Shown: in pieces, positions 38,004 to 55,263 of the stretch
Layout: every line of letters begins with the position of its first letter
How positions within the stretch are numbered: position 1 is the first letter of the stretch
From: Candidatus Thorarchaeota archaeon
Lineage (GTDB): Archaea; Asgardarchaeota; Thorarchaeia; Thorarchaeales; Thorarchaeaceae
NCBI GenBank assembly: GCA_048882045.1
Contig: JBHLRZ010000011.1
Coordinates: 26,778 to 90,777, forward strand
Direction of reading: 5' to 3'
DNA: 64,000 nt
Notes under the pieces: generated by a model
Databases searched by the model: none
Told to the model about the DNA's origin: nothing
What the model saw: the letters and a program-made list of their open reading frames with translations, nothing else
Translations under genes and position numbers: made by a program

Positions 38004-40661
38004 CTAATCGATCCTTCCTTTACCCAGAACCTTCTCGATTGCTATGTCAATATTGACAGAGCGTCCATGGTCAGATTTGCTTGGATCCACACCATCATCA
38101 CCGAATCGAAATTGGACAATTCGTCCGGGGGCAGTTCTGACAGTTCCATCACTCTCGACTTTAAGGTCCTGAAGAGCTGTCATTAGACGTCTCTGCATGT
38201 ATCCTGATGTTGAAGTTCGTACAGCAGTGTCTACTAAGCCTTCACGCCCTCCTGCTGCGTGGAACCAGTATTCTATTGGATCAAGCCCACTCTTGTAGCT
38301 AGACGTGACAAAACCTCGTGCTCGTGCACCGAGATCACCTCTTTCAAAGTGTGGAAGTGTTCGTCCAACATAACCTCTACTGATCCGCTCTCCTCTGACA
38401 GCCTGTTGTCCCACAACTGCAGCCATCTGTGAGAGGTTCAGTCTGGACCCACGGGCTCCAGTCTGTGCCATGATAACCGCTGAGTTCTCAAGACCAAGAT
38501 GCTCTCCTGCTACCTCACCTGCGGAGTCTCGTGCTTCTGCTAGAGTGGCCATGATTCTCTGTTCAAGTGTTTCCAGAAGTGTCTGACCTGGGTTTGGATC
38601 CAGTTCTCCTCGTTTGTATGTTTCAATGAGTTGGTTTACCTTTGCGTCAGCATCGTCTAGAATCCTTTTGATTCGTTGAGAAGCAGCCTTTGGCAGAGTG
38701 ACATCGTTCAGACCCATGGAGAATCCTCTGTCAGTGATAAGTCGAACAAGTAGTCTTCCGACGGAGTCCATGAAAATTCTGGCTGCTGTGGGTCCCTTTT
38801 CCTTGATGATTCTATGGAAAAGAGAGTCTGGTTCTCCTGCACCGAAAGCCTTCTCGTCAACAACTCCAAAGTTTAGATTTCCATCACGAACAACTACGTA
38901 CGCATCGTATTCACAGTCCTCTTTTTTACAGGTCTGGCATTTCCTACAAATGTTAGCCTTGAACGAGATGTTAATTCCCTCTGGGATGAACATGCTGAAG
39001 ATTTGTTTACCTGTCCACAAGGGTACTGGAGCAATGATTGCCGGGTCTGGGAGTACGCCTTCAAAGTTTGCTGTAGCCAAGAGTTGGTTGACTTGGTTCA
39101 ATGTATAGAGACTGGACTTTCTTGTCAGAAGGAATGCAGCTGAGATGTAGTCTTGTAGCGCTCCTATGATTGGACCGCCATAACGTGGGGACAGAATCTG
39201 TTCTTGTACACGCATCAAGACTCGAGCTTCTGCTCTTGACTCTTCAGACTGTGGTACGTGGAGGTTCATTTCATCGCCATCAAAGTCTGCGTTATATGGT
39301 GGGCAGACGTATAGTGAAAGTCTGAAAGTTCTGTATGGCATCACTCGAACTTCATGAGCCATAATGGACATCCTATGGAGTGATGGTTGTCTGTTGAATA
39401 GAACTATGTCTCCAGTGTTTAAATGACGCTCTACAATGAATCCAGGTTCAATGGTATCAGCAATTACTGACCTCTCTTTTACAAACCGTAGGTCAACTCG
39501 GCGACCATCAGTACGAATGAGATAGTTACATCCGGGATGTCTATCTGGACCTCGAATGACTAACTCTTTCATCTCCTCGATGTTCCATTCAGTCACACGC
39601 TGTGGAATTGTGAGGATTCTGGCGATTTGTTCTGGTACACCAACTTCGTTCATGCTTAGGTTCGGATCTGGTGAGATTACAGTACGTGCTGAGAAATCAA
39701 CTCGTTTACCTGAGAGGTTTGATCTGAAACGACCCTCCTTACCCTTGAGTCGTTGAGCCAGAGTTCTGAGTGCTCGACCAGATCTGTGTCTTGCTGGTGG
39801 GATTCCACTCACACCATTGTCGAAGTAGGTAGTACAATGATACTGAAGTAACTCCCAAAGATCCTCGACGATGAGTTGGGGAGCTCCTGCATCCAAGTTC
39901 TCACGAAGTCTCTGATTGATACGAATGATGTCAATGAGTTTGTGACTGAGGTCGTCTTCGCTTCTCACACCCGATTCAAGAGTGATTGAGGGACGAACTG
40001 TCACCGGGGGGACAGCAAGTACTGTGAGAATGGACCATTCAAGCCGAGCAGCTTGTGGATTGATACCCAGTAGACGATAATCATCATCGGTGATGTTCTC
40101 TAGACGAGCCCTGATGTCTATTGGAGTAAGTCGGACTGAGCCAGCCTCACCAACCTCATAGATGGATGTTGGTTTCTCCAATTTCAGTTTGAGAGGCTCT
40201 TCTTCACAATGAGGGCATGATTTGGTTTTTGCAGCCCTCTTCAAGATCTCATTGGACAGATTTGCTGTCTTCTGACCAATCTCTGGATATCTTTTGAAGA
40301 GTCGTTGAAAATGTTCGATTTCTTCATCTGTAAGCAGTATTCTGTTGCAGCTTCTACATATTGCTCGTAGAACCTTGTGGATGACCTTTGCATAGCCTTC
40401 ATGCATGATTGGCCGTGCAAGCTCGATATGGCCAAAGTGCCCTGGACAGTTCCCAACACGGTTACCACAGGTTCTGCAGCGTTGACCAGGATCGATAACT
40501 CCAAGTTTGGGATCCATGATACCGCTATCAATTGGATAGCCGTCTTCGTCGTATGTATCAGCAACTACAATCTGAGCAACTGACATCTTACGGATATCGT
40601 CAGGGGACAAAAGTCCAAACTCGATTGCGTCGACTTTTTTGGTTGTCAATCCTGATATCAT
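38004..40661 (-). CDS. rpoA1: RNA polymerase subunit A' (Rpo1N)
   Basis: NADFDGDEMN catalytic motif, CPGHFGHI. Confidence 0.98.
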   Translation of the reverse strand: MISGLTTKKVDAIEFGLLSPDDIRKMSVAQIVVADTYDEDGYPIDSGIMDPKLGVIDPGQRCRTCGNRVGNCPGHFGHIELARPIMHEGYAKVIHKVLRAICRSCNRILLTDEEIEHFQRLFKRYPEIGQKTANLSNEILKRAAKTKSCPHCEEEPLKLKLEKPTSIYEVGEAGSVRLTPIDIRARLENITDDDYRLLGINPQAARLEWSILTVLAVPPVTVRPSITLESGVRSEDDLSHKLIDIIRINQRLRENLDAGAPQLIVEDLWELLQYHCTTYFDNGVSGIPPARHRSGRALRTLAQRLKGKEGRFRSNLSGKRVDFSARTVISPDPNLSMNEVGVPEQIARILTIPQRVTEWNIEEMKELVIRGPDRHPGCNYLIRTDGRRVDLRFVKERSVIADTIEPGFIVERHLNTGDIVLFNRQPSLHRMSIMAHEVRVMPYRTFRLSLYVCPPYNADFDGDEMNLHVPQSEESRAEARVLMRVQEQILSPRYGGPIIGALQDYISAAFLLTRKSSLYTLNQVNQLLATANFEGVLPDPAIIAPVPLWTGKQIFSMFIPEGINISFKANICRKCQTCKKEDCEYDAYVVVRDGNLNFGVVDEKAFGAGEPDSLFHRIIKEKGPTAARIFMDSVGRLLVRLITDRGFSMGLNDVTLPKAASQRIKRILDDADAKVNQLIETYKRGELDPNPGQTLLETLEQRIMATLAEARDSAGEVAGEHLGLENSAVIMAQTGARGSRLNLSQMAAVVGQQAVRGERISRGYVGRTLPHFERGDLGARARGFVTSSYKSGLDPIEYWFHAAGGREGLVDTAVRTSTSGYMQRRLMTALQDLKVESDGTVRTAPGRIVQFRFGDDGVDPSKSDHGRSVNIDIAIEKVLGKGRID

Positions 40662-43600
40662 TAGATCATCTCCTTCAGACGCAGCCTGGTTGCCAGGCCG
40701 AGTGACATCATTTCTTGTATCAGCAGTTTGAAAGCGTATGAAACTACGACACTACTGATTTTGGCATTGGTGCCGCATATTGGACAGTAGTACTGGTCCT
40801 TGTTGCGATCGTAGACTCCAATCAATCCACATTCCTCACAGACTAGCATGTTGCTCTTGTCTGACTCGTCAAGGAGTCTGCCTTTGAGAAGAATCGCTGC
40901 ACCATGACCGATTAATACATCACGCTCCATTTCTCCAAATCTGAGACCACCCTCTCTGGCTCGTCCCTCAGTGGGCTGACGAGTCAGAATCTGGACTGGA
41001 CCTCTGGCACGGGCATGAATCTTGTCTGCGACCATATGGTGCAGTTTCTGGTAGAAGATTACACCCATGAAGATGTCCACCTTGAGTTTCTCACCAGTGA
41101 TTCCGGAGTACATGGTTTCTCTACCATTGTGTTTCAGACCATGCTTCTTTAGTATGTCAAAAAGCTCATCTTCTGAAACACCACAGAATGGCGTGGCATC
41201 CTGCTGTTTGCCCACCATACATGCAGCCTTGCCAGCTACCATTTCGAGAATCTGACCAATGGTCATTCTGCTTGGAATGGCATGGGGATTGATAAGAAGG
41301 TCAGGGACTACTCCATCCTCTGTAAATGGAAGGTCCTGTTGTGGTACGATGTACCCAATGACTCCCTTCTGTCCGTGACGTGAAGCATATTTGTCGCCTA
41401 GCTCAGGAATTCTGAGGTCTCGGACTTTCACCTTGACTAGACGGTTGCCATCTATGGTTTCTGTCAGTATGACACTGTCTACGACACCTGCTTCTCCATG
41501 ACGTACTGCAACTGATGTTTCGCGACGATTGGGTGAGGCAATCTCGAATTCAGAGTATTCCTCAAGGAATCTTGGTGGAGAGGTCCTTCCTATGAGCACA
41601 TCACCACCCATCACCTCGACCTCTGTTTCGATAATTCCGTCTTCTCCGAGGTTCCTGTATGATTCTGATGCTCTGTATCCTCTCACACTGCGGTCGGGAA
41701 TCTCGAAACGATCTTCCTGTCCACCAGGATACTTTCTCTCCTCGCTCTCATAGACTCGGGCGAATGTACTTCTTCCCAGACCTCGTTCAATTGAGGCCTT
41801 ATTCATGATAAGGGCATCTTCAATGTTGTACCCTTCAAAGGAGAGAATAGCGACAATGAAGTTCTGTCCAGCTGGACGGTCTTCGTAGCCAATAGAGTCC
41901 ATAGCACGAGTCTTGACCAGTGGAATCTGTGGATAGTGGAAGAAATGTGATCGTGTGTCTGCACGATATCTGAAGTTTGATGCGGGTACTCCAACTGATT
42001 GTTTTGCCATTCCGGCCATGTACACATTACGTGGGGACTGATTGCGTTCAGGGAATGGAATCAGTGCTGCTGAAATTCCCAAGATGGTGGAGGGTACTAT
42101 CTCCATGTGGGTATTGTTTGGCCCAATTTCATTGGGGTACATAGCGATTAGTGTGTTTTCTTCTTCCTCAGCGTCAATAAACTCAACAGTTCCGTTTCTG
42201 AGGAGGTCTAGGAAACCCCACTCATTGTCCTGAATCATCCGCAGGTGTTCATCAGTCAATCGGCTCTTCCCATTCTCAACGATAATGACCGGTCTCCTTA
42301 CACGACCTGCATCACAGTTGACCTGCACTTCATGCGTATCCTCATAGTAGGCAATGTTTGTCTGATGATCAATCTCGCCAGCACGGCGCTTCTGTCGTAT
42401 AGTCTTGACCAAGACTTGAGGAGCTGGATGAACACCAACGAGGCGACCGTTCAGGAATACATCAGCCCACTTTGTACCTCTTTTTCCTTGGAGCTTCTCA
42501 ATAGGTTCAACCTCAGCCTTGAGTAGAGCTCTTTCAACTGAGTCTTCCTCAGCACCGACTGAGATGTATGCCATCATTGCGATGTTCTTCACAAGACCAC
42601 AGTTAGGTCCTTCAGGCGTTTCGTTGGGACAGATTTTACCCCAATGCGTAGAGTGAAGGTCTCGTGCCTCGAAGTGTGGTTGCGATCGTGAGAGTGGAGA
42701 AACAACCCTTCTGAGGTGTGAGAGGGATGAGATGTAGTTGGTCCTATCAAGTAGTTGTGATACTCCTGCCTTACCACCAACCCAGTTTCCGGTGGCCAAG
42801 GCATGTTTTAATCTCTGAGTGATTACATCAGCTCGTACTGCAGTGCGAATATTTGGCTTGCGACCACGGACTGCAGTGCGTTCAAGCTGGTACTTAATGT
42901 CTCGTGTAAGTGAGTAGAGAGCCACTCGGAAAAGTGACATAAGAAGATCTCCAGACAGCTTCAGACGTTTGTTGGCATAGTGGTCTTTGTCATCTGCTGC
43001 TCGCTTGTTGAGAACCAACTCAAGAAGTCGTTCTACCATCTGTCCGAGGTAGTAAGCTTTCTGGAGTCGACTGTCGTCTTCAGTTCCAATGTGTGGGAGA
43101 AGATAACGATCCAGTACCTTTTCTGCGCGAGCGAGTCTGTATTCTTTTGTCTGACCGACTGCTACTCGCTTGCCAATGAAGTCCAGAGCATTGGTTCGGG
43201 TTGAGCCCTCTTCTTCGTCACGGGCAGCGTTTATTGGCGCAGATTGCTCAATGGTAACGATTAGTTCGTTTCTAATCTCATCATCATCTGAGATGACATC
43301 AACAATCTCTCTATCAGACTCAAGTCCTAAGGCTTTTAGAAGAATGGCAAGTGGAATCTTCCCAGGCACAGATGGGAATGACACTCTCAGTTCACCAGTT
43401 CGCTTTCGCTCGATTGTAACTGGCGCTCTGAACCCACGAGAAGTGGAGAACACCTTGGCAATGTGAGTATAGCTTGAACTCTTACTTGCTTCCTCAATCA
43501 AGATTCTATTCGGCGCTAAATCCTCTTGTGTAACAAGAACACGCTCTGAACCATTGATGATGAAATATCCACCAGGATCCTTCGGATCCTCTCCATGTTG

Positions 43601-44032
43601 GATGAGCTCTTCATCTGATAGTCCGTGGAGGTGACACTTCTCACTTCGAAGCATGATAGGCAGGTCACCTATGTAAATCCTCATAGTTTCCAACCGCGTT
43701 GACACTGATCCCTCCTTGCGGACAGGGGTCATATCAAGGTGTATCTTGCTTGCATATGTGAGGTTTCTAATTCTGGCTTCATTTGGGTAGAGCTTGTGCT
43801 CGCTGCCGTCAGCTTCTCGAATAGAAGGCTCATCAATATGGATGTCACCGAGTTCCACCACATAACCTTCTATTTTTGGAGTGAGCTTGCCAACACTGTC
43901 TACTACATACTGGAGCTCTTCTCTGATAAACCGGTTAAACGAGTCAAGATGCTGACCTACTAATCCATACTGATCGAAGAATGACTCTATCACTGGCCAG
44001 TACTTTTCCCGTTCGTTTGTGCCCTTTGTCAT
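40661..44032 (-). CDS. rpoB: RNA polymerase subunit B (Rpo2, unsplit)
   Basis: GDKYASRHGQKG, GLRFGEMERD, ETPEG. Confidence 0.98.
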   Translation of the reverse strand: MTKGTNEREKYWPVIESFFDQYGLVGQHLDSFNRFIREELQYVVDSVGKLTPKIEGYVVELGDIHIDEPSIREADGSEHKLYPNEARIRNLTYASKIHLDMTPVRKEGSVSTRLETMRIYIGDLPIMLRSEKCHLHGLSDEELIQHGEDPKDPGGYFIINGSERVLVTQEDLAPNRILIEEASKSSSYTHIAKVFSTSRGFRAPVTIERKRTGELRVSFPSVPGKIPLAILLKALGLESDREIVDVISDDDEIRNELIVTIEQSAPINAARDEEEGSTRTNALDFIGKRVAVGQTKEYRLARAEKVLDRYLLPHIGTEDDSRLQKAYYLGQMVERLLELVLNKRAADDKDHYANKRLKLSGDLLMSLFRVALYSLTRDIKYQLERTAVRGRKPNIRTAVRADVITQRLKHALATGNWVGGKAGVSQLLDRTNYISSLSHLRRVVSPLSRSQPHFEARDLHSTHWGKICPNETPEGPNCGLVKNIAMMAYISVGAEEDSVERALLKAEVEPIEKLQGKRGTKWADVFLNGRLVGVHPAPQVLVKTIRQKRRAGEIDHQTNIAYYEDTHEVQVNCDAGRVRRPVIIVENGKSRLTDEHLRMIQDNEWGFLDLLRNGTVEFIDAEEEENTLIAMYPNEIGPNNTHMEIVPSTILGISAALIPFPERNQSPRNVYMAGMAKQSVGVPASNFRYRADTRSHFFHYPQIPLVKTRAMDSIGYEDRPAGQNFIVAILSFEGYNIEDALIMNKASIERGLGRSTFARVYESEERKYPGGQEDRFEIPDRSVRGYRASESYRNLGEDGIIETEVEVMGGDVLIGRTSPPRFLEEYSEFEIASPNRRETSVAVRHGEAGVVDSVILTETIDGNRLVKVKVRDLRIPELGDKYASRHGQKGVIGYIVPQQDLPFTEDGVVPDLLINPHAIPSRMTIGQILEMVAGKAACMVGKQQDATPFCGVSEDELFDILKKHGLKHNGRETMYSGITGEKLKVDIFMGVIFYQKLHHMVADKIHARARGPVQILTRQPTEGRAREGGLRFGEMERDVLIGHGAAILLKGRLLDESDKSNMLVCEECGLIGVYDRNKDQYYCPICGTNAKISSVVVSYAFKLLIQEMMSLGLATRLRLKEMI

Positions 44033-44183
44033 GTAATCACATCGTGAATGTGAAGGACGGGGGAACTACTGCTATGCACACGCTTCCCAACGCATGGATT
44101 ACCCAGAAAATCCGAGCTCACCAACTGCCTGCAATAGCCGCCCCGTTTGCATTACTCCTACAGACTCACTCCCACTCATGCAA

Positions 44184-44291
44184 TGGCGGGCTCGGCGGGA
44201 TTTGAACCCGCGGCCAATCCCCATATGGGAGATCACTCTCACATATTTCAGGTTAAAAGCCTGCTGCGCTACCTAGCTGCGCCACGAGCCC
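44184..44291 (-). tRNA. tRNA-Lys(TTT) with non-canonical intron near 43/44 (about 44217-44247)
   Basis: GCAGG-CTTTTAA-CCTG anticodon arm, hairpin insert before the variable loop, T arm, encoded CCA. Confidence 0.88.
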
Positions 44292-44610
44292 TTGAGTCAG
44301 GTTTTAACCACCTTGGCCCCATCATCTATGACATCATCGCGCATTACAACATGTCAAGTGGATGCAATTTACGACCATGCATGAGAGGGAAGCAGTTCTG
44401 TCTGAGCAAAGGACGGGGAATTCTGTATCAATAAAAGGGTTGCGATAAAACGCAGAAATGGAGTAACATCTAAGGACGGTTTGGCTTTTGTGAGCCACTT
44501 TTCTATAGGCCTCAATCAGTAATAAATCTACTCTGTAATCGACCCGTGCTGTCTATTCCAGCTCAAATCGTATCCTAGATGTTATGCCCTGACCTGTTTC
44601 TAATTCAAAG

Positions 44611-44800
44611 ATGCAAGCCCCTGTAGTGTATGACCTGCTTCTGAGATTGTGAGTGAACCACAACTGTAAGAAACCTCTGTGTTTCGCCCCTCTCTTGCCA
44701 GTGTCACCACCATCCAGCATTTTCATGAAAATGCTAAACTTAGCAAGAGCATTGTCAACGTTCATTGGGATGGGATCCCTCCTGAAGACCTGGCATCTTT
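44611..44800 (-). ncRNA. Putative TnpB omega-RNA (scaffold plus guide); 5' limit uncertain
   Basis: Dense hairpins downstream of tnpB (20-nt palindrome 44716-44735, CTCTTGC/GCAAGAG, GAAAC/GTTTC, TTGTG/CACAA), ending ...GGTCA then the anti-tRNA-Asp sequence. Confidence 0.55.
44617..44630 (+). pseudogene. 5' 14 nt of tRNA-Asp (split exon and/or TnpB guide)
   Basis: GCCCCTGTAGTGTA, identical to the first 14 nt of the tRNA-Asp at 51900-51887. Confidence 0.75.
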
Positions 44801-46438
44801 CTCCTGTCTTGATGTCGGGGCATCACTCCCAACTACAGAGAGAGTTTCCACAGTATTTTCCACGGCGGGGTCATTATCACCCTTCCCAGATTCATCGCTG
44901 AAGCTGAAAAGACTCGTCTGAGTATGGTGAACAGCCGCGGACTCTCCAAGACCCGATGTTTGATCTTTAGAGGAGAGTAAGGACTTCCCTTGAGAAGACT
45001 TCTTCTTTCGGGCTTTCAGTCGTGCACGTTGAGTCTTATCTAAGACCCTAGTCCACATACCTAGTCCTCTCACAGAGTGCAGTGACTTTGTGAGCTTGAG
45101 CATACGTGCTGCGATGTTGATACTACCGTTCCTGTCAGCATTGGTCTTGTGTCCGCAGGATGGACAGTGGAAGTAGTTCTGCTTGGGTCTCCTACCCTTA
45201 CTTCCACACTTCCAGCACATGATGGAAGTCCAAGCCTCAGGAACGGCTTGGAACCTCGCATCCTTGCCATCGACTTTCCAACCAAGCTGAGCAAGTCCAT
45301 GTTCCAGACTTTCAGTTATCCGGGCAAAGGCCCATGAATTTATCATAGCCCTAAACTTGCGACCTCGGTAGTTTCCTCTTCTGGCACGCATTCGTATATT
45401 CTTTAGACGACCGATGGCTACATAGAGTGTGTATTTCTCAGAGAGTATAGAGATGCAATCAAGAAGTTGTCGAACGAGAACCCTGTCATACTCTTTCGAC
45501 ACATTTTCTCTTTTATTCTTCATCTGACGGAGCCTTTCTGCAATCTTATCGTGTGTCTGTCCGTTCTCTCTCCTGAGATGTAACTCTCTCTGAAGGTTGG
45601 CAACAAGTCGGTCATATTTCTTTATGACTTTGACCTTCTCTTTTTGGATGAAGTATCTTGTTTCCCTCGTCTTCTCTGGAGTTAGGAGAGTTGAACATGC
45701 GGCCTTCTCGATGCCGAGGTCGATTCCAAGTATCGCTACAGGAAGTCCACTCATGTGTAAGTCATCAATCGCAACCCTGACAGCTATTGTCACCCACCAC
45801 TTTCTGAATCGATCAGTGAAGATCTGTACAGCCTTTACATCTCCACGGCGAAGTTGATTCAGGTGAAAGGATGAAACCTTCAAAGGAATGACTAATCTAT
45901 CATGAAATGTACGCCCAGCCTGTACGGAGTCAAGAGAATCCCTTATGTCTAGCCACCAGCGAGCTGAAGATGTACGTTTTTCAACAAGTCTGAATCGTTG
46001 AGCAAAGACCCATCTGGGAATACGTCGACTTCTATTGATTGATGCAGGGCGAGAAGCTCTCAATCCATTCTTCATTCTGAGCTTAAGATAACTCTCATAC
46101 AAAGAAACTGCAATCTGTCTGCACTCGGTCATCTCGTTTTGAGATATTCGAGGGAACCTTGCCTTGAAGTCATGAGGTACGGTTAGTCTCCGACTATAGC
46201 CCGCCTTGACTTGGTGTGCAGTCATAGTGAGCTTATCCAGCTCACCATCATCAATCCGATTTTTCTTACGACCTGTCAACAACTTGTCTTCATGTTGTTC
46301 AATAATTCCAAGGAATGCACGAATCACTCTAGTGTCTCGCCCAATGGTCTGCCTAAGCCTCTGCTTAGTCCTCTCGGTCATGGCTTCCCAGTTGATTGGG
46401 ACCTTCACCGAGATTGTCACACCCTTGGACCGAGCCAT
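44762..46438 (-). CDS. tnpB: TnpB/Cas12f-like RNA-guided nuclease with rearranged RuvC site
   Basis: GIDLG (D240), AIGRL (G343 at RuvC-II), VPEAWTS (E401), CWKC/CPSC Zn ribbon, NADRN (D435). Confidence 0.88.
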   Translation of the reverse strand: MARSKGVTISVKVPINWEAMTERTKQRLRQTIGRDTRVIRAFLGIIEQHEDKLLTGRKKNRIDDGELDKLTMTAHQVKAGYSRRLTVPHDFKARFPRISQNEMTECRQIAVSLYESYLKLRMKNGLRASRPASINRSRRIPRWVFAQRFRLVEKRTSSARWWLDIRDSLDSVQAGRTFHDRLVIPLKVSSFHLNQLRRGDVKAVQIFTDRFRKWWVTIAVRVAIDDLHMSGLPVAILGIDLGIEKAACSTLLTPEKTRETRYFIQKEKVKVIKKYDRLVANLQRELHLRRENGQTHDKIAERLRQMKNKRENVSKEYDRVLVRQLLDCISILSEKYTLYVAIGRLKNIRMRARRGNYRGRKFRAMINSWAFARITESLEHGLAQLGWKVDGKDARFQAVPEAWTSIMCWKCGSKGRRPKQNYFHCPSCGHKTNADRNGSINIAARMLKLTKSLHSVRGLGMWTRVLDKTQRARLKARKKKSSQGKSLLSSKDQTSGLGESAAVHHTQTSLFSFSDESGKGDNDPAVENTVETLSVVGSDAPTSRQEKDARSSGGIPSQ

Positions 46439-46685
46439 CGCTTTGTCTTTCCTTATTAAGTTCTGACCTGTTTCAGGCCAGTTGAGTTCACTCCAATCTT
46501 TGTCTGAAATTGGAGTAATTAACTCATAGATTTATCATACAAGTTTCCTTATTAAGTTATTATGAAAATTTATTATAAACTCTTTAATAAAGAAAATAAG
46601 AACTGATAAGTCTATTTTTATAAATTTTAGACTTCTGAATAAGTATGAAATACTTATAAATAAAATCGAGAGGAGAATAACTGGA

Positions 46686-49600
46686 GTGTCCTGTTTGGGG
46701 CGAAGAACTCAGGAATTCAGACCGAATGCAGTTCTAGCTACTGCACTTTATTCAGGATTATCAGCTCTAGTCTGGTTGGCAAATAGACGAAAGAATAGAC
46801 AGACAGAAGAAATCTTTGAGAAAATTAGAAACAAATGGAAATCTATCCAAGTGAATAAGAAAATGGATGGATCAAGCCGCCCGCATGATTTCTCTAAAGT
46901 TCAGAAGATAGAATCCCCCCTCAGAAAGCTGAATCTACGTATGCTCTGGCTTAGCACGAAACGATACGGCAACAAAGAGAGGAAGCGAGTATACAGCTGG
47001 AAAGAGGGCACCATTGGAGAACTCAATAGTCTACTGAACTATGCTGGAGCAACACTACGAGATATCGTTGTTCCACGTTATCCATTCCCAACCCCACAGC
47101 TCTACGAAATCCGAAAATATCCAGATGGAACAAAGCAAGTCATTCCAAAAGATGTGGCGGACAAGGTCCCAGCAGCACTTGGGGTGAAGACTCACTTGAA
47201 AGCGGGATATCGAGGAAACTCTAAAAATCCCAGAGTGTTATTGACACATCCAACATTACCAGCCATGGACTTTGGAGATATGCTACGAGCTCATCTCATT
47301 GAACTCTGTCGACAATGCTTCATTCATTGTGTACCTCGAACTGAGTCACATCGATACATTAGACTGCTGATTCATAGACTGACCCCATTTCTCGATTGGG
47401 TGTACACACGAGGAAAGACAGGTCGCAAGGATTTCTCCCCTTGCGCAGACAGAGAATTGAGAAAGATTGTACTTGAAATCAGGAACAACTACAGCAGACA
47501 CATTAGGACTAGAGAGAGAATCAGTAAACCAGTCGAAGATGTTCCTCAAGACTTTGGAATAGATGCTCTCAAAGAACAGGTTGAAGCAATACAAGAAACA
47601 TCAGAAGACAGAAACACCAAGAAAAAGTGTAAGACAATTCTTCAGCACATTGAGAAAAGAATCGTCACACACAGAGAAGTGGAAAAGTTCCTTGAAAACA
47701 TCATGAGTAGCGTACAACTAGAAGGGAGCAACTGGCACAGAGTGCTGCTCTCTGGATATCCTCAACCTCGCTCACTCAAAGAGGCCATCTTTGCCGGAGA
47801 CTATCTCCTTCAGAATCCTTCCGGGTTTCAGTATTTTGCTGAAGTTCCGGTCACTGGAATCCAAGGATCAGGAAAGATTGACCTTGTCCTTTTCGTTCGC
47901 ATTCGTTGGCGTGACAGCCATATCTGGGCTCCCATCATGATTCTCGAGTTGAAGACCAAGGCTGGATTCGACTTCAACCTGTTTGGTAAACGTCCCCGTA
48001 CGAAGAAACCCAATGTATTCACACCAGTCTTGAACGCTTGGAAAGAACTTCTCAAGACATCTGAATGGGGTGAAACACTTGGTTCAAAGCCCCCAACAAT
48101 CCATCTTGACCAGATAGATGCATATGAGAATGCTCTGTTATCAGAGTATCATTCAATCATCGGTGAAACTATTGCTTTTAAGCAACTCTGGAAAGGAGTG
48201 GTCACACTTGATGTTTCTCAGGAGTATGAAGACACAAAGCAAATGTTCGATCACATCATCTCCGATTTGGCTAATCGAATAATGAAAGGAGAATTCAATG
48301 GGCGGTGGAAGACACTCAAATTCAAGGACAAGCCTACGGAGCAGATAGCTCCTCGAGTAGCCATTACAATGACTCCAGCTCAGGGTCCTGTGGATGTACT
48401 AAAACGTGTCAGTCCCCTCGAAAATGTTCTATTCGAAGACCCCTTTGCTGATAGAGTGGAGGATGACACCTTCTTCACCCAGTACATTTCACTATCATCT
48501 CCAACATCATCCGGCAAGAGTGCAGCATGGTTTGCCAAGAACTGGCATCTCTTGAACCACCTTGCAGAGCTGGAACGGGCTTTGGACACAGAAACTTCTC
48601 TGACTTGGATTGATCTAATTGGTGATTTTCCAACAAAGAAACTGATAGAGAAGCGATTTGGACTTGATAATCTAAAGAAGAACAAGCTGATTACGAATTC
48701 AGAATATGCAAAACTGAGAAGTCTGTTAGAACGAGTCACCTTTGTCAGTCTTAGAGAGGATATTGATAGATTTCTCATCGACGGGAAACAATCAGGAATC
48801 GAGAGGGCGAGGTCTGCAATCACAGCAGCTCTCGAATCTGAGTCAGAGAATCAAATTACAGTTGTAGATGGCTGGTCGGACTTGGAGAACATGACTCCTG
48901 CGACTCATAGGAACAATCTACAGGTGCTTGAACTCTCACTGCTTCAGATTGTCAAGGATCTCATGAACGAGGTAATCTGGACCGATACAGGAGTTGACCT
49001 TCCACAGGTTTCCGAACTCTATCAACGGAACAGCCCAAGTCCATTCTACTACACATCTCCTAGGAAACAGGTCATTGACGAGGTTCTATGGAATGTGCCC
49101 ACAGCTCCTCAAAAGATGGGGTGGCAGACCCCGGAGTATGAGGACAGTCGAGTAATCATCCAGGACCTACCAACAGAACAAGATCCATGGTCCACGGTCA
49201 TCCATGTACCGCATCTCAAGGGTCTGGGTCGTAAGTTCAGCAAGGCTTCCGTTAGAAGTCCTATTGTCAAGATTGAGAGGCAAACTGGTGACCTGAATCA
49301 ACATGAAAATATGCATGGAAGGTCCTTTCGAAGTTCATCCATCCAGGTGCGTTCTGACACTATTGACATGACCTCCTTGGAAGAAATCACAAAGCATGCA
49401 TTTATCCTGATTCCAAGTCTTCTGAGACCTAGAGATGGACAACCACTGAGTCAGGTCAATGAACATAGTGTTGATTGGTCAACGACCTATCACAATGTCA
49501 ATGTAAACAGTGTTCATCCAAGTCTATCAAGCAGACTGCATCTTGACGTGGACAGAGAGCCACCACATCCAAATCGAATAGGAATTGGTCATGAGGGAAT

Positions 49601-51776
49601 CTACGTTGAGGCAAGGTCCATCACACGTGGGTGGATTCACAAGGAAACTGATGAAGAGGAAGAAGAATCGGTAACGATCACCCGAAGACCAGCTTTTACT
49701 TATTCATCTGAATCAACTCATATCGATACGATTGATACCAGACGAAGAGAAGTCCTACGGTTGTCATACGCTGCTGAGTTCCTCAGTAAGAGACCAACTT
49801 CCTACCGCTCTCTCTACAGAAAGATCGTTTCACTCTGTACCTATGACAACAACGAAACTACTGAGGAGAATCTACTGGGAATACTCACTCAAGTCAGAGA
49901 GGTCATTCTTCACCGAACTGAGACTCAGCGTCTCTGGACACTTCTCCTCAATGACAGGTTGAATCTTGGAAACCTACTGAACTCTGTTAACCTGAAGACA
50001 CTGCAACAAGCATTGGGTCATAATCCTGAACTCATGGATCTCTATGGGATGAATCTCTTTCTTGGAGTGCTTGATGTAGCAACTAGGGTCCTGAGAGATG
50101 CAGAGTCCCCTCATTGTAACGATCTATGGTCATCAGTTGCACGATGGCAGCTCTATCAGATTGGTTTTAGGCAGCAGGATGAGGGAGAATTCGAACACCG
50201 GTATGACTTTCAAGCAATCCACTCAAATCTCACATGGAGGGCGAAACAGATGAAGAAGACAACTTCGCGGATAACCACAAGATTTCCTGAGCAACACGGA
50301 CTATTGCTCTTTCAAGAGAAGAGTGATGGTGGCAGTATCTGGCTACTGTTTCCCTCAATCAAGAAGACTATATTTGGTGCGCTGTTGGAGGAGCAGATGA
50401 GTGCCATTCTTCGCTATGGGTGGCACAGAGGTGAGATAGATCCTCAAAAACTCTCGAAGAGTGCAAAAAGTGCCCTGTCAAGAGACGGGTGGATGGAATA
50501 TCCCATTGTTCTTGTTTCTGTGAACAAACAACACGTGCTCTACACAAAGGACGAGGAAGAATGGGTTCAGTCTGGTCTGTTGGAGTATGGAAATCCTCCA
50601 AAGGAGCAGAGTCAACCTGCACGTTGGATCAGACTGTCGCAACCGTCACCCGAAACTCTTGCAGTCTTGTATGGGTACAGGCCAGGTTCCTTTAACACTG
50701 AGGTCGAAATAGAGTGTGACGAAGTGTTAAAGGAGGCTGCTGAGTGGAGTGGTGTAGTAAGGGAGGTTTCGTGTTTTCTCACCATTGACCCTGAGAAGAA
50801 GGTTTACAGGATTGACCTGAATGAAGGCTCAAAGACCATAGCAAAGAAGGAAACTCAGTATACTGATGAAGCGATTAGATTCCTCAGATACCCCCAGAGA
50901 ATTGGAGAATACTTTTCGACTGCAGACGGTACATACCTCAAGTGGGATGCTCGGAAAGACATCGAGTATGATGAAGTGAAACTCAAGAACAGAGATGGGA
51001 AGTATGACTTCTATCACTTGTCAGTGTTCAAGCCACTCATCCACAGATACTCGTTCTTTTCAGACAGCTACAAGTTACCTTCGACCTGTGAGGACTTCTT
51101 GATGACCAAGGCTGGTGAGGACATAACTCTGAGAATAGTAGTGGATGAACAACGAAAGGACCGAGGTTACAAGAAGTATCTCAAGGTCCGGCTAGATGGA
51201 CTACAGGGAAGAGGACATCTGATTGGTCTTGAGATGGAGGACATGGGGATATTCGATGTGGCACTATTGGCAGAATCCGGACAACTTGTGGACTCGGATT
51301 CTGGGAAGAGGTGCGATGTCACGATTAATTCAAAGGCTCTTGTTAGTCTTAGAGTGGTTCATCTCCTCTCTGATTATCCACGAACTCAAAACTCAATAAT
51401 TGGGGATATAGAGGAACTTGAATCAGCTGAATTGGAAGAGTCAAAATTGACTGATGACGAACTGTTCGAAATCGATGATTCAACACCAGAACTTAGGTTT
51501 GTCAGAGTCCATGTGGAGGAATCTTTACGACAGAGATCTTTGGATGCGATTGCACATCTGTGCAATGTAGATGACGAAACTGACTTTGAGGAGGTGGTAG
51601 TAGTATCAGTATCATCTGAGATTGCAAAGAACCAATCGGTATCTTTTGACTTCATCGAGCATGAAGTCAAGCTCAATCTGAGAGGTCGTAGAGTAAGCAA
51701 TGTCACAATAGAATCCATCTTGAAAGAGGTAGAAGATGCGTTTGAAAACAAGGGAGTAGCAATTGATTATTACTAG
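46686..51776 (+). CDS. Giant uncharacterised protein with PD-(D/E)XK nuclease and P-loop-like regions
   Basis: E386..IDL(D399)..ELK(421-423), QIDAY; SPTSSGKS near 605; VVDG near 726. Confidence 0.7.
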   Translation: MSCLGRRTQEFRPNAVLATALYSGLSALVWLANRRKNRQTEEIFEKIRNKWKSIQVNKKMDGSSRPHDFSKVQKIESPLRKLNLRMLWLSTKRYGNKERKRVYSWKEGTIGELNSLLNYAGATLRDIVVPRYPFPTPQLYEIRKYPDGTKQVIPKDVADKVPAALGVKTHLKAGYRGNSKNPRVLLTHPTLPAMDFGDMLRAHLIELCRQCFIHCVPRTESHRYIRLLIHRLTPFLDWVYTRGKTGRKDFSPCADRELRKIVLEIRNNYSRHIRTRERISKPVEDVPQDFGIDALKEQVEAIQETSEDRNTKKKCKTILQHIEKRIVTHREVEKFLENIMSSVQLEGSNWHRVLLSGYPQPRSLKEAIFAGDYLLQNPSGFQYFAEVPVTGIQGSGKIDLVLFVRIRWRDSHIWAPIMILELKTKAGFDFNLFGKRPRTKKPNVFTPVLNAWKELLKTSEWGETLGSKPPTIHLDQIDAYENALLSEYHSIIGETIAFKQLWKGVVTLDVSQEYEDTKQMFDHIISDLANRIMKGEFNGRWKTLKFKDKPTEQIAPRVAITMTPAQGPVDVLKRVSPLENVLFEDPFADRVEDDTFFTQYISLSSPTSSGKSAAWFAKNWHLLNHLAELERALDTETSLTWIDLIGDFPTKKLIEKRFGLDNLKKNKLITNSEYAKLRSLLERVTFVSLREDIDRFLIDGKQSGIERARSAITAALESESENQITVVDGWSDLENMTPATHRNNLQVLELSLLQIVKDLMNEVIWTDTGVDLPQVSELYQRNSPSPFYYTSPRKQVIDEVLWNVPTAPQKMGWQTPEYEDSRVIIQDLPTEQDPWSTVIHVPHLKGLGRKFSKASVRSPIVKIERQTGDLNQHENMHGRSFRSSSIQVRSDTIDMTSLEEITKHAFILIPSLLRPRDGQPLSQVNEHSVDWSTTYHNVNVNSVHPSLSSRLHLDVDREPPHPNRIGIGHEGIYVEARSITRGWIHKETDEEEEESVTITRRPAFTYSSESTHIDTIDTRRREVLRLSYAAEFLSKRPTSYRSLYRKIVSLCTYDNNETTEENLLGILTQVREVILHRTETQRLWTLLLNDRLNLGNLLNSVNLKTLQQALGHNPELMDLYGMNLFLGVLDVATRVLRDAESPHCNDLWSSVARWQLYQIGFRQQDEGEFEHRYDFQAIHSNLTWRAKQMKKTTSRITTRFPEQHGLLLFQEKSDGGSIWLLFPSIKKTIFGALLEEQMSAILRYGWHRGEIDPQKLSKSAKSALSRDGWMEYPIVLVSVNKQHVLYTKDEEEWVQSGLLEYGNPPKEQSQPARWIRLSQPSPETLAVLYGYRPGSFNTEVEIECDEVLKEAAEWSGVVREVSCFLTIDPEKKVYRIDLNEGSKTIAKKETQYTDEAIRFLRYPQRIGEYFSTADGTYLKWDARKDIEYDEVKLKNRDGKYDFYHLSVFKPLIHRYSFFSDSYKLPSTCEDFLMTKAGEDITLRIVVDEQRKDRGYKKYLKVRLDGLQGRGHLIGLEMEDMGIFDVALLAESGQLVDSDSGKRCDVTINSKALVSLRVVHLLSDYPRTQNSIIGDIEELESAELEESKLTDDELFEIDDSTPELRFVRVHVEESLRQRSLDAIAHLCNVDDETDFEEVVVVSVSSEIAKNQSVSFDFIEHEVKLNLRGRRVSNVTIESILKEVEDAFENKGVAIDYY

Positions 51777-51792
51777 TTCATGAGTCAAAAAG

Positions 51793-51900
51793 TGGCGCCC
51801 CCGCCGGGATTCGAACCCGGGTCTCAAGAGTGACAGTCTTGAATGCTAATCCGGATACTGTAAAACATCTACAGTATTGACCGTACTACACTACAGGGGC
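51793..51900 (-). tRNA. tRNA-Asp(GTC), intact, with D-loop intron (51849-51878)
   Basis: CAAGA-CTGTCAC-TCTTG, CCGGG-TTCGAAT-CCCGG, G73, CCA; 30-nt hairpin insert in the D loop. Confidence 0.92.
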
Positions 51901-51995
51901 TGCGGTTCGGTTGGAGCAAAGTCGATTTTCTATTAAACTCATCGGTCGAGAACATATAACTACGGACGAGTTCTATTAGATATTGAGGAGTTATT

Positions 51996-52628
51996 GTGAA
52001 AGATGATGATTCACCTGATAATTGGATTCAGGTTAGATTATTCTACAATGCCTTTGAAAATGAGAAGATAAGAAAGCTAGATCAACGGGTTTTAGAAGTA
52101 GGTTCAGATCTAGAGAATGAAGAGCTTGCAGAAAGTTGGCACATTAGATTCTCCGGACCTTACATCTCATTACGTGTCAAAACTAAACCTAGAAATCGAG
52201 CAGAGGTTGAAAGCCGAATTGAAGCATTGAAAAAAGAATTGACTAACGAGAATCTAATCAGAGATTCTAAGATTGATTTGAAAGAATTTCTCCAAAGTAA
52301 TGAAGTCCCTTCCGATCTCGAATCATGGAAAGAATGGAACATCTTGATGGAGATTCTCAACTTATGTAGTCGAATCGTCAGGATGGTACATAAACTGGAG
52401 AAACACGAACGTAGATTGTATATGACACATAACAAAGTAATCCATCACTTCTATAACATGGCACATATTCAGGACACATTCATTCCCTTTCTAATGAAGT
52501 ATCCATATGACAGTATCATTGGCTTTCTGGAGGAGGGGGAGGGAGAGAAACTCACGAGGATTGTAAAAGACTTAGGTGCAGAAGAGAAACAATGGTATAT
52601 GAAATTACATTTTGGTCAGATGATTTAA
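51996..52628 (+). CDS. Hypothetical protein, weak resemblance to lantibiotic dehydratase C-terminal domain
   Basis: WIQVRLFY...WHIRFSGPYISLRV...IHHFYN. Confidence 0.45.
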   Translation: MKDDDSPDNWIQVRLFYNAFENEKIRKLDQRVLEVGSDLENEELAESWHIRFSGPYISLRVKTKPRNRAEVESRIEALKKELTNENLIRDSKIDLKEFLQSNEVPSDLESWKEWNILMEILNLCSRIVRMVHKLEKHERRLYMTHNKVIHHFYNMAHIQDTFIPFLMKYPYDSIIGFLEEGEGEKLTRIVKDLGAEEKQWYMKLHFGQMI

Positions 52629-52692
52629 TCATTCGCAAAATAAGGGGTGCTATGGAATCCAGAATCCATGGTTATTCGAAAAAGTAAGGATT

Positions 52693-52847
52693 TGACGGTC
52701 TAGCATTCAAGACTGTCAATCCAAAGTGGTTGGCACCTTGGAACGGATCTCTTGAGACTCTCTCATTCGTGAGAGAGCCAGAGAAAGACCCGGGTTCAAG
52801 AGGAATCATGAATTCCATGGTTTTTGGAAATCCCGGCGGGGGCGCCA
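52693..52847 (+). tRNA. 3' part of split tRNA-Asp(GTC) with three BHB introns (52719-52748, 52755-52785, 52801-52830)
   Basis: Removing the three inserts gives GACGGTCTAGCATTCAAGACTGTCACTCTTGAGACCCGGGTTCAAGTCCCGGCGGGGGCGCCA. Confidence 0.85.
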
Positions 52848-52958
52848 CTCTCTATTTTCCACTATTCTTCATTATTAAAATTCTGAGTTCCAAAAGGACC
52901 ATTAGGAAGGAGACCGTTTGTTTCGACCAAGTTTTGATTAATTGTGGAAAGGGTAGAG

Positions 52959-53780
52959 ATGAAAGAAAAAACAGGCTATTTACACGAAGGTACAGAAGAA
53001 GAAGTAGCGCGTCTTGAATTTCAGGCTGACGAGGATGAAGAACACCTTAGTGCTGAATTCGATATATTGCAAATTAACTCAGGGATGAAAGTTCTTGATG
53101 CTGGTTGTGGAACAGGTGCGGTTACAAGGCGAATTGCCAGAAGAGTCGCACCTTCTAAAGTAGTTGGGGTTGATCTTGATGAATTCTTCATTGAAAAGGC
53201 TAAGGAATTTGCAGCCAAAAAAGAGATCGAGAACATTCAGTTTGAGGTAGGTGATGTTGCAAATCTTCGATTCTCTGATTCCGTGTTTGATTTATCCTAC
53301 AGTAGACTTGTCTTGATGCATGTTCAAGATCCTGTCAAGGTTGTTTCCGAACTTCGACGTGTGACAAAAAGTGGAGGAATTGTAGGTGTGTCAGATACCG
53401 ATGATGATGCAATGCTAATCTATCCATCAATTCCGATTTCCACAGAGCTCAGAAGTAAATCTGTTGAATGGATGAAAACGAAGGGTGTCAATCGGTATAT
53501 AGGAAAAGAGCTATACGACATATTTCGGCTAGCTGGACTGAAATCGATTAGAATTATTCCATTTCCATTCATTATTACAAAAGAAAACCCAGAGGACTTG
53601 GAAGCATATGTTTCGAATCTAAAGCAGAGTTATGAACAGATAAAGGACCTATTAATTGAACAGGGCATTATCACTTCCAAAGAGAGCGATGAGGTCTACA
53701 AGGAGCTGGAAGAGTTTCTCGATCATCCGGGTAGGTTCCTAATGGTATGTATGTTTTTAGGAATTGGAGAAGTGCCATAG
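52959..53780 (+). CDS. Class I SAM-dependent methyltransferase
   Basis: VLDAGCGTG, VGVD, FDLSYSRLVLMH. Confidence 0.9.
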   Translation: MKEKTGYLHEGTEEEVARLEFQADEDEEHLSAEFDILQINSGMKVLDAGCGTGAVTRRIARRVAPSKVVGVDLDEFFIEKAKEFAAKKEIENIQFEVGDVANLRFSDSVFDLSYSRLVLMHVQDPVKVVSELRRVTKSGGIVGVSDTDDDAMLIYPSIPISTELRSKSVEWMKTKGVNRYIGKELYDIFRLAGLKSIRIIPFPFIITKENPEDLEAYVSNLKQSYEQIKDLLIEQGIITSKESDEVYKELEEFLDHPGRFLMVCMFLGIGEVP

Positions 53781-53785
53781 ATTCA

Positions 53786-53808
53786 CAAGTCCCAGCGGGG
53801 GCGCTACT
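53786..53808 (+). repeat. Degenerate intron-less copy of the tRNA-Asp 3' end (att-like)
   Basis: CAAGTCCCAGCGGGGGCGCTACT vs spliced CAAGTCCCGGCGGGGGCGCCACT, 21/23. Confidence 0.75.
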
Positions 53809-53814
53809 ACTTCT

Positions 53815-54675
53815 TTATTCATTCTCAGGTTCCAAACTGTCCCAGAAGCTCTTCGGAGGGTGTCGTAGGTTCCAATCTACCCGGGTGTCATGCAGAACAC
53901 GAGAGCAGTATGAATCTCCTTGTGCGATTGTGTGTTCCATAGTGAGAATTACACTGTCATGGTATACCTTGAAGTTTTCATAATCGCCATAACAACAGAC
54001 ATAATATTTTAGCTCGGTATCGGGCAGTTCATCTCCAATGGCAGTAAGAAAGACACAGTTGTCATTCCGAAAAGCATACTTACCATCCCCAATCATGGTA
54101 TGAACGATTTGCCAATCAGAGGGGGTTTCTTTAGGTTCAGTCCTCCTAGCAAAGAGGTCTTCAAGATTGTCTACTATTTTTCTATTCGGATCTCTGTTCT
54201 CCATTGAATACTGTGTGACGAATCTCTTGTATAATGCAATGGCTTCTTTTCTACCAATAGTTTCAGACAGGACTACCAGGTTGTTGTAGTTGTGGTGTGA
54301 CCAGGACTGGAAATATGCCCTGTTGACGACTTTGGTTTCTCCAAGACGATCCTCAGGCCGAAGTTGGAGAATCTGTACAATGTAGTTCAAAACAAGTCTG
54401 CTGAGTCTGGGATGCTCTTTCAGGTGGGGGGTATTGGATACGATGTCATCAAGGTCTGGGGGATTAGCCTTCGCTTGCTCATCATTCAGTAGATCTTGAT
54501 ATTTGGCGGTGAGATTGACTATATATTTAGGAAAAATCTCTGGAATTCGTTCTTTGACAAATCCAAGGAAATAGTCCATACGCCTGAATCGGTCTTGTAT
54601 TTCCTCAAGCGAATTGATCTCAACGATTCGCTCCATGGTTTCCGGTCTGTAGTTTCCAGTTCTCACAACCTTCAT
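53815..54675 (-). CDS. L-2-amino-thiazoline-4-carboxylate hydrolase-like protein
   Basis: C...CCYGD...HTIAQGDSYC pattern. Confidence 0.6.
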   Translation of the reverse strand: MKVVRTGNYRPETMERIVEINSLEEIQDRFRRMDYFLGFVKERIPEIFPKYIVNLTAKYQDLLNDEQAKANPPDLDDIVSNTPHLKEHPRLSRLVLNYIVQILQLRPEDRLGETKVVNRAYFQSWSHHNYNNLVVLSETIGRKEAIALYKRFVTQYSMENRDPNRKIVDNLEDLFARRTEPKETPSDWQIVHTMIGDGKYAFRNDNCVFLTAIGDELPDTELKYYVCCYGDYENFKVYHDSVILTMEHTIAQGDSYCSRVLHDTRVDWNLRHPPKSFWDSLEPENE

Positions 54676-54782
54676 TGTCAAATCACAAGACCCGATGAAG
54701 TCTGAGTTAATAAGAGTGTCAAACAACGCAGAAAACTCAGCTATCGTGACTAACATAAGGACAATCATCCAGAAAATAAACT

Positions 54783-55247: not shown

Positions 55248-55263
55248 ACAGAGATGATGATAG

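Follow-up and report, generated by a model that had tools for sequence, protein, structure and literature searches.

We identified a TnpB, hereafter P0001, in a 64,000-nucleotide stretch of DNA from a Candidatus Thorarchaeota archaeon (contig JBHLRZ010000011.1 of assembly GCA_048882045.1; this stretch is called the window and all positions refer to it). A tRNA-Asp(GTC) gene is split by an insertion of 8,062 bp, and tnpB occupies one end of that insertion. Our best explanation of the whole, to which we assign a probability of about 0.6 on the strength of sequence comparisons and structure models, is that P0001 is a TnpB with an alternative catalytic glutamate ('Ealt'), that the C-terminal tail of the protein is an omega-RNA gene read in frame, and that the element is aimed at the very tRNA-Asp gene it interrupts and would be retained by homing. 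More interesting than the TnpB itself is its surrounding: an element without a recognisable transposase that combines an Ealt TnpB, a very long scaffold, a split tRNA as its presumed target, a spare tRNA and the usual giant orphan neighbour.

Active site and fold of the TnpB

The tnpB coding sequence covers positions 44762-46438 on the reverse strand, an open reading frame (ORF) of 558 residues with a core of about residues 1-455 and a tail at 446-558. The original prediction, made from the sequence alone, had placed the aspartates of RuvC-I and RuvC-III at D240 and D435, a glycine at the canonical RuvC-II glutamate position and a substitute glutamate at E401. The sequence and an alignment of 166 relatives confirmed the ORF and each of these residues. 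D240 belongs to a GIDLG motif (45719-45721; this and the following TnpB features lie on the reverse strand), G343 to AIGRL (45410-45412), E401 to VPEAWTS (45236-45238) and D435 to NADRNG (45134-45136). The zinc ribbon is built from C408/C411/C425/C428 (45155-45217), with CxxC pairs starting at 408 and 425. P0001 therefore has the RuvC D-E-D triad interrupted by a CxxC...CxxC zinc ribbon that is typical of TnpB, with the glutamate at the alternative position, and it shows both marks of a rearranged RuvC-II: an inert residue at the canonical glutamate and a glutamate six residues before the zinc finger.

Conservation was counted in 120 close and 46 distant relatives, reaching down to ~23% identity. 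D435 was kept in every one of them. D240 and G343 were each found in all close relatives and in 44 of the 46 distant ones (164/166 for G343), and E401 was missing from a single close relative (119/120 and 46/46, or 165/166). The four zinc-ribbon cysteines were invariant apart from one C428 substitution in the distant set, and L241, the middle residue of the DLG motif, was conserved to at least 90%. The conservation of the catalytic residues and zinc-binding cysteines across 166 relatives shows that the pattern is real and under selection and did not arise by chance. Homologues of equal length and 71-85% identity are assigned to Candidatus Thorarchaeota by their sources. The Pfam family Cas12f1-like_TNB (PF07282) matched P0001 at 5e-13, and the best solved relatives found with phmmer were the TnpB 9nzp (6.6e-11) and Cas12f chains. 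In the phmmer alignments, the catalytic glutamate of the 'iqmEdL' motif in the solved Cas12f and TnpB chains aligned to G343. A nuclease-dead, TldR-like TnpB, an outcome that by the original prediction would have refuted it, is contradicted by D240, E401 and D435 being invariant or nearly so.

The fold was modelled with AlphaFold2 on a 62-sequence alignment. The mean predicted local distance difference test score (pLDDT) was 80.6, with blocks up to residue 460 averaging 67-96 and lower values afterwards. The predicted secondary structure follows the RuvC/RNase H order, a topology in which the C-terminal ends of the three strands converge at the active-site edge. D240 stands at the end of strand 234-241, strand 337-344 terminates at G343, strand 396-400, a neighbour of strand 337-344, is followed at once by E401 and then by the zinc ribbon, and D435 begins helix 434-449. 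Foldseek returned AsCas12f and OsCas12f as top matches (E ~1e-16), followed by the TnpBs of ISFba1 and ISDra2, and placed the mimivirus Fanzor2 (9b0l) at rank 24. A family profile searched against PDB sequences gave the same picture, with TnpB 9nzp at 1.2e-32, Cas12f at 1e-30 to 1e-32 and Fanzor2 at 2.1e-14; Fanzor1 was not detected by this profile at E values up to 10, nor among the fold matches. As part of the overall explanation given above, we take the putative active site to consist of D240 (beta1), D435 and E401, which at the end of beta5 would replace the beta4 glutamate, now Gly343.

This layout has precedents. Jiang et al. (PMC10530073) reported that in Fanzors, as in a subgroup of TnpBs ('TnpB2'), the RuvC-II glutamate has given way to Gly or Pro and an alternative glutamate is used instead, in agreement with how the layout had originally been characterised for P0001. 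The alternative glutamate is catalytic in ApmFanzor2, where E467A abolishes cleavage by ApmFNuc, and the archaeal TvTnpB of Thermoplasma volcanium is an active nuclease that is specific for its target-adjacent motif (TAM) and has no collateral activity (PMC10530073). Yoon et al. (PMC10711439) named the glutamate six residues upstream of the first CxxC 'Ealt' and defined Fanzors and pro-Fanzors by Ealt together with a DPG motif in RuvC-I. Altae-Tran et al. 2023 (PMC10691335) found the RuvC-II rearrangement (RIIr) in two major clades with eight large branches, some of them nearly confined to archaea. P0001 fits the second regular expression of Yoon et al., D{P}G-x(120,160)-E-x6-CxxC-x(12,18)-CxxC-x(4,8)-D: the spacing is 158 residues from G242 to E401, then E-x6-C408, with 13 residues separating the two CxxC pairs and a further 6 leading to D435. 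Judged from its sequence, P0001 is probably a catalytically competent TnpB of the RuvC-II-rearranged type (Ealt, TnpB2/RIIr). Since E401 occupies the Ealt position and Ealt enzymes are active in the literature, P0001 is likely to be an active RNA-guided nuclease.

The C-terminal tail and the omega-RNA scaffold

A tail of more than 100 residues had been noted from the start, and it is present as a Ser/Lys/Gly-rich segment at residues 446-558. Its codons do not behave like those of the core. In a codon alignment of 31 DNA copies, the entropy at codon positions 1, 2 and 3 was ~0.7, 0.5 and 1.45 in the core. Five out of the six windows of the tail instead gave nearly equal values of ~0.5-0.9 for the three positions; the exception was residues 446-470, where the third position reached 1.02. 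RNAalifold, applied to 30 copies over the stretch that begins at codon ~445 and reaches as far as the conservation does, predicted 99 pairs in 19 helices, 55 of them with compensatory double changes. In this structure 95.2% of the scaffold cells were paired, compared with 38-45% when the partners were slid by 1-3 columns, and the slid controls gave only 17-23 double-change pairs. None of 500 shuffles attained any of the observed measures.

On the basis of codon entropy, RNAalifold and shuffling, we place an omega-RNA scaffold of ~437 nt at 44631-45068 on the reverse strand. It overlaps codons ~457-558, crosses the tnpB stop codon at 44762-44764 and ends in ...GCAGGTCA; conservation stops at ...GGTCA / ...GCAGGTCA (44631). 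A structured omega-RNA over the 3' end of the ORF, with the guide at its own 3' end, is what a TnpB should have, and the predicted structure agrees with it. Rfam, searched over 44000-53900, gave two tRNAs only and no family for the scaffold. Close to its end, at 44650-44658 on the reverse strand, lies a GTTCACTCA motif that is conserved in ~30 related copies. By eye it falls in the loop of a putative last scaffold hairpin, outside the structure scored by RNAalifold. The stretch directly 5' of the motif is only 5-11 nt long, lies beside the scaffold and is not obviously the guide.

The scaffold also exists on its own. With an nhmmer profile we found complete scaffolds without an upstream TnpB core in five other genomes. 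These scaffolds lie at internal loci and share an identical 5' boundary. The lack of third-position relaxation, the covarying helices and these stand-alone scaffolds together lead us to conclude that the 113-residue tail is an omega-RNA gene read in frame and not a protein domain, although a minor role as protein is possible. In the overall explanation, the last ~100 codons would be the 5' two-thirds of the scaffold. The earlier description of a large protein with a low-complexity tail thus holds for the tail as such; as a protein feature it appears to be a by-product of the overlapping RNA gene.

The stand-alone omega-RNA genes (L067, L068, L071, L073 and L076-L080, in genomes G046, G081, G140, G037 and G128) have scaffolds of ~440-460 nt and a different 3' flank in each case, and the 700 nt upstream of them contain no tnpB core. 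Four of them (L076, L078, L079 and L080) have an upstream block in common, with a TATA-like GCTTAAATAG ~25 nt before the scaffold start. The guides of two stand-alone genes had no second match in their own genomes. Eight of 18 fetched 'solo tail' loci were contig-end artefacts and were discarded.

An imperfect inverted repeat (CAGTTG-x-GTTCACTC) brackets tnpB at 44649-44666 and 46476-46494, and the GTTCACTCA motif is its right arm. The left arm (GGAGTGAACTCAACTGGCC, 46476-46494, reverse strand) lies inside the 250-nt intergenic region between tnpB and the divergent giant ORF, which is conserved and contains two TATA-like boxes. For this region RNAalifold predicted no more than a weak stem of 6 pairs on the sense strand, and none on the other strand.

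The element in the split tRNA-Asp gene

The insertion occupies 44631-52692, in the D-loop of tRNA-Asp(GTC), with TGAC at both junctions (44631-44634 and 52693-52696). On the forward strand, the orphaned 5' fragment of the resident gene (nt 1-14) is left at 44617-44630 and its 3' part, from nt 15 and with three inserts, at 52693-52847, as recognised from repeats I1 and I2 and from intact genes in relatives. We searched 40 genomes of the host family with the rpoB/tRNA-Lys flank for occupied or empty tRNA-Asp sites. An uninterrupted tRNA-Asp was found at the same rpoB/tRNA-Lys locus in three genomes of the same genus (G087, G098 and G103) and in several others, and a further genome, G165, carries the same insertion at the identical nucleotide. 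These empty sites, together with the insertion in G165, define the inserted DNA as the 8,062 bp given above. It contains tnpB, the giant ORF, an intact tRNA-Asp(GTC) with one D-loop intron (51793-51900, reverse strand) and a 210-residue ORF (51996-52628, forward strand), which is cargo of this element alone, belongs to no known family and had no homologue in other elements. By blastn, the only intact tRNA-Asp anticodon arm of the 93%-complete assembly lies inside the element. The exons of the orphaned 3' part look intact, and its T-loop insert is absent from the intact gene of G087.

The right end (RE) of the element carries tnpB and the scaffold. The bases after 44631, TACACTACAGGGGC, are the exact reverse complement of the tRNA 5' end, and their sole other copy in the genome is at 51887-51900, in the spare tRNA. 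An exact inverted match of 15 nt (inverted repeat I6) ties the candidate guide at 44610-44630 (reverse strand) to the tRNA-Asp 5' end: its initial 14 nt run antisense to nt 1-14 of tRNA-Asp and the remainder is the upstream flank of the tRNA.

In ISDra2-type homing within the IS200/IS605 family, a guide taken from the right-end flank aims the TnpB nuclease at the unoccupied site. We propose that the DNA adjoining the scaffold serves as guide here as well. As tnpB and its scaffold end inside the split tRNA, the guide would be antisense to the tRNA-Asp 5' end plus its upstream flank, and the ribonucleoprotein would be aimed at the uninterrupted tRNA-Asp allele. In the manner of TnpB homing, empty alleles would be cut, and homologous repair from the occupied copy would then retain and spread the element. 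The tRNA-Asp copy that the element carries would keep the cell viable, and the giant neighbour may act as a nuclease or RecA-like recombination or mobility factor. Compared with the resident alleles, the element's own tRNA copies are changed at tRNA position 17, immediately 5' of the protospacer, and they diverge from the guide beyond its position 15; whether such differences would protect the element's copy depends on the TAM.

Several observations weigh against this explanation. NCBIfam guided_TnpB scores P0001 at 84 bits, under its curated cut-off of 100. P0001 does not reside in an IS200/IS605 or IS607 element with TnpA: none of the element's ORFs matched a transposase family, and neither TnpA nor any other recognisable transposase was found in the 8-kb element. 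No consistent TAM emerged when left flanks, right ends, the internal tRNA copy and the empty sites were compared; GTCA or GGAC-like motifs were the candidates. The same four nucleotides (GTCA in the orientation of the element) end the RE and precede the left end, which leaves the discrimination of self from non-self unexplained, and the element's own tRNA copy has a 15-nt match to the candidate guide. The paralogues are old, none being more than 91% identical across loci, and so give no sign of recent mobility. Finally, a recognisably tRNA-derived flank was present in only ~10 of ~33 distinct copies.

Where the flank is tRNA-derived, it takes several forms. At L052 and L060 the right-end flank is a complete tRNA-Gly in antisense, and the module's far end holds a second tRNA-Gly copy that has diverged. 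In some copies such a far-end tRNA repeat is a direct one. The flank is the 5' half of a tRNA-Arg up to the anticodon loop at L009 and the 3' half of a tRNA-Arg at L016, and at L063 a 12-nt tRNA-Leu repeat stands at the right end, with the full gene just upstream of tnpB. The distribution of the family was examined in a sample of 151 Asgard genomes with up to ten matches listed per genome. Among the matches listed, close full-length relatives of P0001 (at least 46% identity, tail included) occurred only in the host family, in 22 of its 26 genomes; other Asgard families had only TnpBs of 33-39% identity, with matches ending near residue 448. One of these other families (f5; genomes G003, G026, G074 and others) carries at least nine such TnpBs per genome, without tail or scaffold overlap. 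Paralogues inside one genome are 62-87% identical. Among 31 fetched distinct full-length copies, 27 keep an open frame and four have one in-frame stop. The set does not look like a recent burst but like old diversity kept mostly intact, and, as part of the overall explanation, the clade of P0001 would have expanded in one Thorarchaeota family, where alone our searches found it.

The giant divergent ORF (46686-51776, forward strand) encodes an orphan protein of 1,696 residues. Homologues stand beside tnpB in the same divergent layout in most of the fetched copies, at identities from 94% down to 26%, and a minority of tnpB copies have no giant neighbour; in the search made, the family was found only in Thorarchaeota. 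No credible match came from Pfam (searched with the single sequence and with all 20 members of the family), NCBIfam, PADLOC, PHROGs or a profile search of the PDB. Among the invariant residues are G393/D396 ... E418-x-K420, a pattern resembling a PD-(D/E)xK nuclease motif. An AlphaFold2 model of residues 1-1150 of the 1,696 (pLDDT 71.8) contains a RecA/Rad51/KaiC-like core at 588-896 (VIA-align Z ~12 over ~200 residues, root mean square deviation 3.5-4; Foldseek ~1e-4), and the protein has a Walker A motif, SPTSSGKS, and a Walker B-like VVDGWSD. Nothing Cas1-like was seen in residues 1-1150, whose fold matches were RecA-like, and Cas1 (PF01867) was not detected in the 93%-complete genome. It is our conjecture, from these motifs and the model, that the giant protein is a nuclease plus RecA-like helper in recombination or mobility.

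Alternative explanations and related systems

We considered how else the enzyme and its tail might be understood. The original prediction saw in P0001 an active, Fanzor-like nuclease with relevance to eukaryote origins, that is, a Fanzor-type enzyme, relative or ancestor of the eukaryotic Fanzors, preserved in Asgard archaea. P0001 does have the Gly/Ealt arrangement in common with Fanzors, fits the D{P}G expression, comes from an Asgard archaeon and gives significant hidden Markov model and fold matches to Fanzor2 9b0l. We nevertheless regard this as very improbable: RuvC-I reads D240-L241-G242, whereas DPG defines Fanzors and pro-Fanzors; pro-Fanzors have been reported from cyanobacterial IS607 elements alone (PMC10711439); and Cas12f and TnpB chains outscore Fanzor2 in the profile (1e-32 vs 2e-14) and fold searches (rank 1 vs 24). 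The host is a thorarchaeon and not a eukaryote, giant virus or cyanobacterium, and the element has no serine recombinase. Moreover, Ealt is spread over many prokaryotic clades, which together with DLG in place of DPG makes the layout non-specific for Fanzors; it is already known from many prokaryotic TnpBs, archaeal ones included, and is not diagnostic of Fanzor ancestry. Of the earlier claim, the activity stands as likely, while neither a specific likeness to Fanzors nor a relevance to eukaryote origins found support. Nor are Thorarchaeota known as the Asgard lineage nearest to eukaryotes. The tail, for its part, could be a functional protein extension, such as a disordered basic segment for DNA or RNA binding or for localisation, besides or instead of RNA. 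The frame is open in 27 of the 31 copies, aligned copies share the same stop, indels in the tail stay in frame and AlphaFold2 gives short helices at 459-471 and 524-534. That the tail works as protein is still quite unlikely in our view, as its third codon positions are no freer than the first and second, the covarying helices account for the region, several stand-alone scaffolds keep the frame open despite lacking an upstream TnpB core, and AlphaFold2 gives pLDDT values below 50 for residues 473-523 and 528-558.

The role of the element can be questioned in a similar way. P0001 may be a domesticated, non-mobile RNA-guided factor and no transposon nuclease, either a regulator or a maintenance/addiction module with its giant neighbour, which would control or police the tRNA-Asp locus by binding or cutting its 5' end and promoter-proximal flank. 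Exaptation of TnpBs has precedents (PMC10691335), the paralogues are old and mostly intact, the element has no transposase, the divergent pairing with one orphan protein has been maintained over the whole range of giant-protein identities, and there are stand-alone omega-RNA genes with their own TATA-like box. We consider domestication unlikely: the catalytic residues are all invariant, unlike those of inactivated exapted TnpBs, the copies occupy differing loci across genomes, the tRNA-Asp site is occupied or empty among congeners, the guides are plain flanking DNA as in mobile TnpB elements, and the two stand-alone guides that we searched with had no second target in their own genome. The homing explanation, which we prefer, can be taken further, and here we are tentative and would give it rather less than an even chance. 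A transposase-less 'break-and-replace' element could use an Ealt TnpB, guided by DNA that the element has displaced, to cut the intact form of a single-copy, essential tRNA gene; the variant rescue tRNA on the element would escape the cutting, and the element would act as a drive by homing or addiction; the giant partner would supply recombination or mobility, and the stand-alone omega-RNAs would re-aim the nuclease in trans, a step towards array-free multi-guide targeting.

Among known systems, P0001 resembles TvTnpB and the TnpB2/RIIr enzymes in the Gly or Pro at the canonical RuvC-II glutamate, the alternative glutamate near the zinc finger, the prokaryotic (including archaeal) host and an omega-RNA at the 3' end. 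TvTnpB belongs to an IS605 element with a Y1 TnpA, whereas the clade of P0001 has no TnpA, sits in tRNA genes, is paired with an orphan of some 1,700 residues and has a much longer scaffold (~437 nt), which overlaps the ORF by ~300 nt. With Fanzor2 (ApmFNuc/ApmFz2, 9b0l) and the pro-Fanzors it has in common Ealt six residues before the zinc finger, the compact TnpB fold and a guide RNA overlapping the 3' end of the ORF, and it differs in its DLG motif, archaeal host, lack of an IS607 serine recombinase and a similarity weaker than that to Cas12f and TnpB. Its best matches, Cas12f (AsCas12f 8j12/8dzj, OsCas12f 9nzq) and TnpB 9nzp, show the same WED/REC/RuvC/zinc-ribbon layout but use the canonical beta4 glutamate, and Cas12f works with CRISPR arrays. 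A type V-F CRISPR (Cas12f) identity was rejected, as no tandem repeats were found in 40000-56000, no array-like repeats were seen and no Cas1 was detected in the genome.

Two TnpB groups linked to Asgard archaea, Cas1H-Asgard-1/2, were described with a conserved GTTCACTCA motif downstream of tnpB (PMC10691335). By comparison with that published description, P0001 is alike in its Asgard host and in the same motif downstream of tnpB, and differs in that PF01867 was not detected in the 93%-complete genome, in the RecA-like fold seen within residues 1-1150 of its neighbour and in the short stretch 5' of the motif. The proposed homing shares with ISDra2-type homing a right-end-flank guide to an unoccupied site, and with the guides of tRNA-homing type V-K CRISPR-associated transposons (bioRxiv 10.1101/2021.02.06.429022) a TnpB-derived effector directed at tRNA genes; our element differs from both in that the target tRNA is split, an inverted spare copy is carried and neither TnpA nor Tn7 machinery is present. 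The aloposons of Heimdallarchaeum (PMC8813620) are likewise described as Asgard mobile elements built around giant orphan ORFs and integrating at tRNA genes; they have tandem genes for 3,000-6,000 residues and a ParA-like ATPase, and no TnpB is reported.

Taken alone, the rearranged active site adds one further archaeal clade to a known class and has no bearing on Fanzor origins. If the overall explanation is confirmed, P0001 would be an unusually clear case of more than 100 annotated residues being an RNA gene read in frame, and would call for caution in annotating and engineering 'large' TnpBs. It would also reveal a TnpB family that is long-lived without a recognisable transposase, in or beside tRNA genes and sometimes with a replacement tRNA, and would make the role of TnpB in homing and selfish retention directly testable on a natural essential target. 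The giant partner and the stand-alone omega-RNA genes could then show how TnpB recruits helpers and multiple guides en route to CRISPR-like systems. The Ealt enzymes tested so far show no collateral cleavage, and genome editing may therefore profit from a new clade that is well sampled and has a defined scaffold.

Some smaller features of the region and of related loci were seen as well. A 19-nt direct repeat (GAAACAGGTCAG... in tnpB orientation) is found at 44582-44600 and 46456-46474, one copy just upstream of the tnpB promoter in the left-end region and the other 30 nt beyond the right end. The candidate guide is thereby flanked by two AGAA(G/A)CAGGTCA-like segments, possibly the remnant of an older element end. 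An orthologous element, L008 (G146:C94), has a degenerate second terminal scaffold segment ~80-130 nt past its right end, with a second GTTCACTCAC 115 nt downstream, and resembles tandem right-end remnants. At L089 (G131:C40, ~2954), ~680 nt separate the rpoB/tRNA-Lys flank from a tRNA-Asp that is of the element type, with an intron in the D-loop and none in the anticodon loop; no tnpB was noticed between the two, and the gene may be a leftover of a decayed element. ARAGORN misses or mis-parses the intron-bearing tRNAs of this region. Between tnpB and rpoB, at 44184-44291 on the reverse strand, lies an intron-containing tRNA-Lys(UUU) that scores 58.6 bits with the Rfam tRNA model; ARAGORN misses it by default and, with introns allowed, calls it 'tRNA-Stop(tta)'.

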